From assembly GCF_001677475.2 (NCBI RefSeq), contig NZ_CP015229.1: a DNA stretch of 64,000 bases, one strand, 5' to 3'. Shown here one piece after another: positions 4,793 to 4,880 of this stretch (positions are counted from its first letter, which is position 1; every line of letters begins with the position of its first letter). Source of the stretch: Escherichia coli. GTDB lineage: Bacteria > Pseudomonadota > Gammaproteobacteria > Enterobacterales > Enterobacteriaceae. The notes below the pieces were generated by a model. That model worked only from the letters and a program-made list of their open reading frames with translations, was not told the origin of the DNA and ran no database searches. A program made the translations under genes and the position numbers.

Positions 4793-4801
4793 GATGTAAC
4801 C

Positions 4802-4862
4802 AAAGACAGCAGTGGCTTTTAATATTAATGCGTCATGTCACGCAGGGGTTGCTGCTGTCTTT
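4802..4862 (+). terminator. 11-bp inverted repeat (aaagacagcag / ctgctgtcttt) between tpsA and tpsB followed by T-rich stretch; putative attenuator or partial terminator
   Basis: Seen in sequence; long 39-nt spacer so not a canonical intrinsic terminator. Confidence 0.3.
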
Positions 4863-4880
4863 ATTTAGTTTGAGAAGATA

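Follow-up and report, generated by a model that had tools for sequence, protein, structure and literature searches.

A conserved hairpin between the exoprotein and transporter genes of the Otp two-partner secretion locus of Escherichia coli, a candidate leaky terminator

The window analysed here, a stretch of 64,000 nt of Escherichia coli DNA, carries a gene for a two-partner secretion (TPS) exoprotein that is placed before the gene for its transporter and before a long row of lipid-type genes on the same strand, and this order raises the question of how a secreted substrate might be made in another amount than the channel and the enzymes encoded behind it. A preliminary description of the sequence had pointed to an 11-bp perfect inverted repeat followed by a T-rich stretch in the spacer between tpsA and tpsB, and had suggested that it acts either as a partial terminator or as an RNA stability or processing element which sets the ratio of exoprotein to transporter. 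This either/or proposal is backed by five lines of evidence, namely the selection of the element as a plus-strand RNA, its polarity in 26 of 26 loci, the necessity of read-through for the genes behind it, the contrast with loci of the opposite gene order, and a step in published RNA-seq data. The otpA-otpB hairpin is most likely an ordinary kind of gene-dosage control.

The otp locus and its relatives

The locus is part of an E. coli O157:H7-type island (S-loop 71; ECs1282-1283, Z1542-1543), and the region is 98% identical to the chromosomes of O157:H7 and O145:H28, where the same genes are annotated (Table 1). Compared with O157:H7, the spacer is 100% identical, its flanks 97.9% and the non-coding DNA upstream of otpA 96%. 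In EDL933 (CP008957.1) the spacer corresponds to 1,440,174-1,440,261, window positions 4862-4871 falling at about 1,440,243-1,440,252, and in Sakai (NC_002695.1) an estimated offset puts it at about 1,353,747-1,353,834. The product of otpA contains a Pfam TPS domain (E = 2.7e-41) together with Fil_haemagg (haemagglutinin repeats) and is annotated in O157:H7 as a filamentous hemagglutinin N-terminal domain protein, and the product of otpB contains the Pfam domains ShlB (E = 5e-70), POTRA_2 and POTRA_3. In the literature the pair is named OtpA/OtpB and its function is given as unknown. The 15 genes behind otpB include acpS, genes for an SDR reductase, a FabA/ApeI-like dehydratase, an ACP and a GcvT-like aminomethyltransferase, three KS-type genes, ABC transporter genes, and genes for LolA-like and FabD proteins as well as ycdU. 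Altogether, 17 plus-strand genes follow each other nearly without gaps from 980 to 21309, and the whole 21 kb codes on the plus strand only.

Table 1. Features of the otp locus and of the otpA-otpB spacer, in window coordinates.
Feature	Position	Strand	Details
otpA (tpsA, ECs1282/Z1542)	980-4792	+	two-partner-secretion exoprotein, 1270 aa; stop TAA at 4790-4792
otpA-otpB spacer	4793-4880	+	88 nt; contains the whole element
E. coli variant C4800T	4800	+	outside the stem
Core stem, 5' arm	4802-4812	+	AAAGACAGCAG; A-run and GC core
Stem extension, 5' side	4813-4819	+	UGGCUUU; partner 4845-4851
E. coli variant G4815A	4815	+	G.U to A-U in the stem extension
Apical mini-hairpin	4829-4844	+	UGCGU-CAUGUC-ACGCA within the big loop; 5 bp, 4829-4833 with 4840-4844
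E. coli variant C4839T	4839	+	in the loop of the mini-hairpin
Stem extension, 3' side	4845-4851	+	GGGGUUG
Core stem, 3' arm	4852-4862	+	CUGCUGUCUUU; among the most conserved spacer columns
U-rich tract	4860-4871	+	UUUAUUUAGUUU, directly after the GC core; U at 9 of 12 positions
Shine-Dalgarno-like GAGAAG of otpB	4872-4877	+	unpaired in the hairpin fold
otpB (tpsB, ECs1283/Z1543)	4881-6500	+	Omp85-family transporter, 539 aa
15 closely packed genes after otpB	6516-21309	+	intergene gaps 0-75 nt

Relatives of OtpB, with identities from 84% down to 44%, were found in Kosakonia, Enterobacter, Izhakiella, Mixta, Buttiauxella, Klebsiella, Leclercia and Silvania, and further in Aeromonas veronii and a Neisseria sp. 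In every one of their loci with upstream DNA present, tpsA comes first and is followed by tpsB and by acpS-SDR-FabA-ACP-GcvT-KS. The full array (tpsA, tpsB, acpS, SDR, FabA/ApeI-like, ACP, GcvT-like, double KS, KS) is seen in the window and in loci L082-L089 and L002-L021, being syntenic from E. coli to Kosakonia, Enterobacter, Mixta, Klebsiella aerogenes, A. veronii and a Neisseria sp., and in O157 and the window it runs on into the ABC transporter, LolA-like, FabD and YcdU genes. Across these genera the secreted TPS exoprotein thus goes together stably with an uncharacterised pathway of a lipid or polyketide-like type.

Structure and conservation of the spacer element

The repeat of the preliminary description was recovered at exactly the coordinates given there, with arms (AAAGACAGCAG at 4802-4812 and CTGCTGTCTTT at 4852-4862) that are exact reverse complements 39 nt apart, and its T-rich stretch corresponds to TTTATTTAGTTT at 4860-4871. 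When the 88-nt spacer was shuffled 20,000 times, a perfect inverted repeat of 11 bp or more turned up 9 times (about 5 in 10,000), and the window as a whole holds 8 such repeats (gap 3-60) compared with 0.83 ± 0.73 in Markov-1 random windows. In plus-strand RNA the core is prolonged to an 18-bp stem, 4802-4819 pairing with 4845-4862, the seven added pairs being six G.U and one C-G. Over 101 nt the plus strand folds at -30.7 kcal/mol (z = -2.6, with 1 of 200 shuffles as good), the hairpin by itself, which has 6 G-C pairs in its core, accounts for -27.1 kcal/mol, and in a 301-nt context it is present in the MFE and centroid structures alike (z = -3.1). On the minus strand the core alone forms, at -21.5 kcal/mol, since the extension pairs mostly by G.U and therefore only in plus-strand RNA. 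The in silico folding that had been proposed as a check on the element thus predicted a stable plus-strand hairpin, and not the lack of stable structure that would have spoken against it. The hairpin starts 9 nt after the otpA stop and ends 18 nt before the otpB ATG. An Rfam search of positions 4000-6000 at a permissive E-value returned only matches with E > 1, far under the gathering scores.

A hairpin was present in all 24 related spacers first examined, where it starts 7-19 nt past the tpsA stop and has a contiguous helix of 9-18 bp in 23 spacers and one of 14 bp with a single bulge in L010. From Escherichia to Aeromonas and a Neisseria, 26 of 26 tpsA-tpsB spacers share a common layout of A-run, GC core (usually GCAGCAG-like in the related spacers), loop of 3-40 nt, complementary arm and U-run. 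When 12 spacers were aligned with MAFFT, conservation was highest in the columns of the two arms and the loop was not alignable, and the RNAalifold consensus is exactly the 11 bp first described; the 5' arm of the core occupies columns 22-32 of alignment A3 and 20-30 of A5, and a TGAG in the Shine-Dalgarno-like region of otpB is invariant in A3. A covariance model (R1) was built from these 12 spacers and searched on both strands of 1.18 Mb of DNA, including about 60 other TPS loci. It matched the 12 training spacers and six untrained tpsA-tpsB spacers, all on the plus strand, and gave no significant match outside tpsA-tpsB spacers.

In an 18-sequence alignment, standard pairs fill 98% of the 197 pair cells and 5 of the 11 pairs carry compensatory double changes, values that none of 500 shuffles reached; when the partners were slid by 1-3 columns, pairing fell to 30-71%. 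All eight one-sided changes are C-to-U or A-to-G, each giving a G.U pair on the plus strand and an A.C mismatch on the other. In L082, a relative with 84% identity, CAAC replaces the UGGC of the window opposite an unchanged GUUG, which amounts to three wobble-to-Watson-Crick changes. L082 and L083 retain the apical mini-hairpin, with a C-to-U (U.G) change, and in L084 it is remodelled. Of 24 loci, 17 have a plus-strand hairpin of greater stability than its complement, and 5 have one of lower stability. Among 5,426 complete E. coli genomes, 380 carry the element in one copy each, 367 of the copies being at least 99% identical, and no second copy was found in those 380 genomes (blastn, word size 11, E-value limit 10). 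Three sites vary, as taken from three variant records among the carrier genomes (Table 1); none of them disrupts pairing, and one strengthens a pair. The compensatory changes, the one-sided plus-strand wobbles, the single copy and the stability of the plus-strand fold show that the element is a plus-strand RNA structure under selection and not a DNA palindrome, a dispersed repeat or a chance match.

Other hairpins were observed in the window. At 9711-9783, in the spacer between the GcvT-like and KS genes, a second GC-rich intercistronic hairpin lies right after the aminomethyltransferase-like stop and has no U-tract; it is found at 9830-9906 in L082, 7650-7729 in L083 and 9831-9907 in L084, and is kept despite differing sequences (GCCGCGTGA.../GTCGCGCGGGG.../CGCGCGG.../GCCGCATA...). 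At 663-760, some 250 nt ahead of the otpA start, lies a perfect inverted repeat of 16 bp (GGATGTCTGAAATGAT, arms 666-681 and 701-716); T7 follows it, and its terminator-like index on the plus strand is d = 18.5. In O157, A713G turns an A-U pair of this repeat into G.U, and the purine-rich tract just after it (AAGGAGGAAGGAGGGGGGGAC) has a G-run of 7 in the window and of 5 in O157 SS52. This upstream element may serve as an attenuator in the leader, mark where a small transcript ends, or be a variable tract.

Terminator features, transcript levels and competing explanations

The spacer element has a stable GC-rich stem-loop on the transcribed strand and, directly 3' of the stem, a U-rich tract, as is expected of intrinsic terminators, in which this tract is about 7-9 nt long. 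In 26 of 26 loci A's lie 5' of the GC core (3.4 of 4 positions) and U's 3' of it (3.3 of 4; 5.7 of 8), and this orientation is never reversed. The tract UUUAUUUAGUUU has U at 6 of its first 8 positions but is interrupted and is therefore weaker than textbook U-tracts (U-tail score T = 4.63, compared with 4.75-6.07 in textbook terminators), and the hairpin is 55-61 nt long with a large apical part. On a d'Aubenton-Carafa-type formula with modern energy parameters, the terminator index d of the window element is 8.8, above 0 yet far under the 36-80 of five known terminators. By this index the element ranks 12th of 31 positive plus-strand clusters in the window, and some of these clusters fall within genes. 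On this index the single E. coli sequence is marginal and would not be classed confidently as a terminator; its natural reading is that of a weak or leaky one. Among the relatives d ranges from -9 to 38, with the best values (27-38) in Enterobacter, Buttiauxella, Mixta theicola and L021. U-tracts are poor in L019, L018 and L088, and in several relatives the stem continues beyond the U-run (GGUAAAAG...CUUUUACC), more like a plain stable hairpin. A simple terminator scan did not report the element because of its loop limit of 3-8 nt, and picked up the inner hairpin alone, on the minus strand.

No promoter-like site was found on the plus strand in 4793-4880, the nearest lying at 4572-4599, upstream of the hairpin, and the gap of 18 nt between hairpin and ATG is taken up by the U-rich tail and GAGAAG; polymerase would therefore have to pass the hairpin to reach the genes downstream. 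Between the GC core and the tpsB ATG there are 19-23 nt in most loci and 8-29 nt across the relatives. A promoter within the long loop was considered and rejected, there being no match in 4793-4880 and no conserved -10/-35 in the unalignable loops of the relatives. A start-stop mini-ORF (ATG-TAA, 4794-4799) is absent as a conserved feature in relatives, and coupling to the terminating ribosome through a fixed distance from stop codon to hairpin received no support, as this distance is 7-19 nt and the hairpin tracks a conserved GTAA motif, not the stop codon.

Strand-specific RNA-seq of EDL933 has been published for 11 conditions and 13 libraries (PMC4048457, Tables S2 and S4). In these data otpA (Z1542) was above background in 13 of 13 libraries (background probability 0 in 12 and 0.003 in one; Table S2), compared with a background probability of 0.2-1 in 12 of 13 libraries for otpB (Z1543). 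RPKM values (Table S4) were 7, 4, 1, 6, 4, 1, 2, 5, 2, 4 and 2 for otpA, 1, 0, 0, 0, 0, 0, 0, 0, 0, 1 and 0 for otpB, and about 0 for Z1544-Z1546 (acpS onward). The level of otpA exceeds that of otpB in 11 of 11 conditions, the levels being very low and rounded and such that termination and faster distal decay are inseparable. The coverage step over the spacer for which the preliminary description had proposed to look is thus seen as a drop from RPKM 1-7 to 0-1 (PMC4048457), and coverage is not uniform. Farther downstream, Z1547-Z1552 (window about 8233-15900) have RPKM 1-5 in some conditions, though Z1543-Z1546 are at about 0 (PMC4048457), and this return of signal suggests one or more weak internal promoters downstream of otpB. 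Among the start sites listed for these genes in the accessible part of the EDL933 Cappable-seq data, only antisense ones occur, inside otpA and otpB. The supplements of PMC5597208 hold no entry for ECs1282-1284, and Term-seq data for strain Sakai have been published (GSE143631, PMC7547250). One RNase E-CLASH hybrid read joins the ECs1282 mRNA to the sRNA MgrR at about 3882-3905 of the window, inside otpA, with a predicted -21.3 kcal/mol (PMC5286369); as a single read about 900 nt upstream of the spacer, it was set aside as irrelevant to the hairpin.

Gene order provides a further comparison. About half of 51 tpsB-first loci have spacers of 17-64 nt, in which helices are merely 3-8 bp, and most of the others have a gap of about 540 nt, which probably holds an extra gene, with a few gaps of 98-405, 1218 and 1338 nt. 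A second, unrelated tpsA-first family (Serratia, Enterobacillus and Kluyvera; about 31% TpsB identity) likewise carries a GC-rich hairpin immediately behind its tpsA stop codon, with a U-tract in some loci and none in others, and seems to have arrived at this layout by convergence. Its loci L020, L022-L025, L050 and L058 encode a short TpsA of about 700 aa and each have their own strong GC hairpin, at about 5870-6000. Judged from these sequences, a hairpin occurs where it would reduce the transporter relative to the exoprotein, and is absent where the opposite would result.

Probably the element is an intrinsic terminator that leaks, its hairpin at the same time stabilising the 3' end of otpA, and we favour this reading over a pure stability element. 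As RNA polymerase leaves otpA, the hairpin would form while the enzyme enters the U-tract, and most transcripts would end there, 4860-4871 being the expected site of their 3' ends. The result would be a monocistronic otpA mRNA that is shielded by its 3' hairpin from 3'-to-5' exonucleases, and a minority of polymerases would read through to give the message for otpB and the lipid genes, so that the secreted substrate would be made in excess of the outer-membrane channel and of the enzymes encoded behind it. We infer that termination at the U-tract is the cause of the drop, that read-through is the source of otpB message, and that stoichiometry is the purpose.

If the element instead served stability or processing only, polymerase would not stop at it; the RNA would be cut downstream, the hairpin would block 3'-to-5' exonucleases, and the otpA segment would outlive the rest, as with the malE-malF REP sequence and the processed papA mRNA. 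Differential decay of this kind explains the RNA-seq step equally well, the hairpin and not the U-tract is the best conserved feature, and the marginal terminator index points the same way, as do the weak U-tracts and the stems reaching past the U-run in some relatives. The hairpin between the GcvT-like and KS genes, which has no U-tract, suggests that hairpins act as stabilisers in this operon. An exonuclease barrier, however, needs no A-5'/U-3' polarity, yet 26 of 26 loci have it, and since a mere stability hairpin would not require it, the fixed polarity supports a terminator; furthermore, the conserved A-U pairs at the base of the stem are less stabilising than G-C pairs would be, and many relatives score as good terminators (d = 27-38). 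As for processing, the stem of 18 bp, including six G.U, compares with about two turns (20 bp or more) of near-continuous double-stranded RNA for RNase III, and the stems of the relatives measure 11-16 bp, most being too short, so that stem length gives RNase III processing no support in most relatives. A pure stability or processing element is thus considered possible but rather unlikely. Much less probable is a complete terminator that closes an independent otpA unit and leaves otpB and the lipid genes to a promoter of their own. It would fit the very strong fall to near zero at otpB and the signal at Z1547-Z1552, which hints at internal promoters, but the short distance between hairpin or core and ATG in E. 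coli and its relatives leaves no room for a promoter, the spacer shows no promoter-like site on the plus strand, otpB is silent where later genes show signal, and the tight tpsA-hairpin-tpsB-acpS spacing is conserved across genera; the antisense-only start sites in the part of the Cappable-seq data mentioned above are a further, weak point against it.

Readings at the level of DNA or of the other strand, in which the element would be a palindrome (operator, cruciform or recombination site), an antisense terminator on the minus strand or a REP/MITE-type repeat, are extremely improbable and largely refuted. The core is a perfect DNA palindrome pair, its minus-strand version also has a moderately U-rich stretch after it, and antisense start sites are listed within otpA and otpB in the accessible Cappable-seq data. 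The arm spacing of 3-40 nt among relatives, however, cannot be reconciled with a dimeric operator of fixed geometry, pairing of the extension and of the one-sided substitutions is possible in plus-strand RNA alone, and all genes over 21 kb lie on the plus strand. Exactly one copy per genome in the 380 E. coli carriers, together with R1 hits confined to tpsA-tpsB spacers, led to the rejection of REP/BIME, MITE and other dispersed repeats. It has also to be considered whether the hairpin might be a conditional gate, that is, a near-full stop under laboratory conditions which some signal or factor opens to give the transporter and the 15-gene lipid pathway. This is doubtful, though less so than a complete terminator. 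Candidates for such an opener are a processive antiterminator other than RfaH/ops, an sRNA, ribosome-polymerase coupling at the nearby stop codon, or a protein that binds RNA at the GCAGCAG/CUGCUGC stem, whose sequence is conserved. If a conditional gate were true, OtpA secretion would be coupled to the making of a lipid.

Implications and comparison with known systems

As a probable leaky terminator, the element may account for the near-silence, throughout the 11 published conditions, of otpB and of the lipid genes linked to it, and in any expression of OtpAB or of the lipid cluster the spacer is expected to limit downstream output. R1 provides a small family-specific RNA motif model by which islands with Otp-type TPS and lipid genes can be recognised in Enterobacterales, Aeromonas and a Neisseria. 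In intra-operon attenuators such as rplL-rpoB, partial read-through feeds the distal genes. The otp element resembles these and intrinsic terminators in general in its GC-rich hairpin, 3' U-tract, 5' A-tract and position just after a stop codon, but differs from generic terminators in its hairpin length of 55-61 nt, its 18-bp stem rich in G.U, its apical sub-hairpin, its interrupted U-tract and its marginal score. Intercistronic hairpins that stabilise mRNA include the REP sequence of malE-malF and the 3' stem-loop of papA in the processed papB-papA mRNA. With these the otp element shares a hairpin after the gene for an abundant product and a segmental difference in mRNA within one operon; REP sequences, however, are dispersed, multi-copy and have a consensus of their own, whereas the otp element is single-copy, family-specific and of terminator polarity.

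The closest analogue is hlyA-hlyB. In the E. coli hlyCABD operon a stem-loop terminator between hlyA and hlyB uncouples expression of the toxin from that of its exporter, with RfaH aiding read-through, and when this terminator was put between substrate and transporter genes, secretion rose 3.5- to 5-fold (PMC9306574). The likeness lies in a stem-loop terminator, in otp a probable one, that is placed behind the gene of the secreted protein and ahead of the export genes in one operon, and in a substrate mRNA that exceeds the transporter mRNA; the arrangement of RfaH/ops-type systems, a terminator between exoprotein and transporter genes, is matched by the candidate terminator of the otp spacer. 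The two differ in that hly is a type 1 and otp a type Vb secretion system, with no sequence similarity between them, and in that read-through in hly is achieved via RfaH at ops/JUMPStart, whereas otp has no ops core upstream of tpsA: the ops element GGCGGTAGnnTG had no match within 1-980 of the window, and the ops core GGCGGTAG was absent upstream of tpsA in the window, in O157 (L001) and in 23 relatives, and RfaH/ops control was rejected on this ground. Elsewhere in the window, GGCGGTAG occurs on the plus strand at 39711, 40403, 51686, 54639 and 60630, all in the distal 25 kb, and nowhere on the minus strand, with a chance expectation of about one per strand.

Conventional TPS operons, of the shlBA, hpmBA and cdiBAI type, are built from the same TpsA and TpsB families as otp, but place tpsB before tpsA. 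A built-in attenuator would supply an excess of substrate over channel, which tpsB-first operons would obtain in other ways, and the otp element thereby gives a testable reason for the exoprotein-first order of the Otp-type TPS family.
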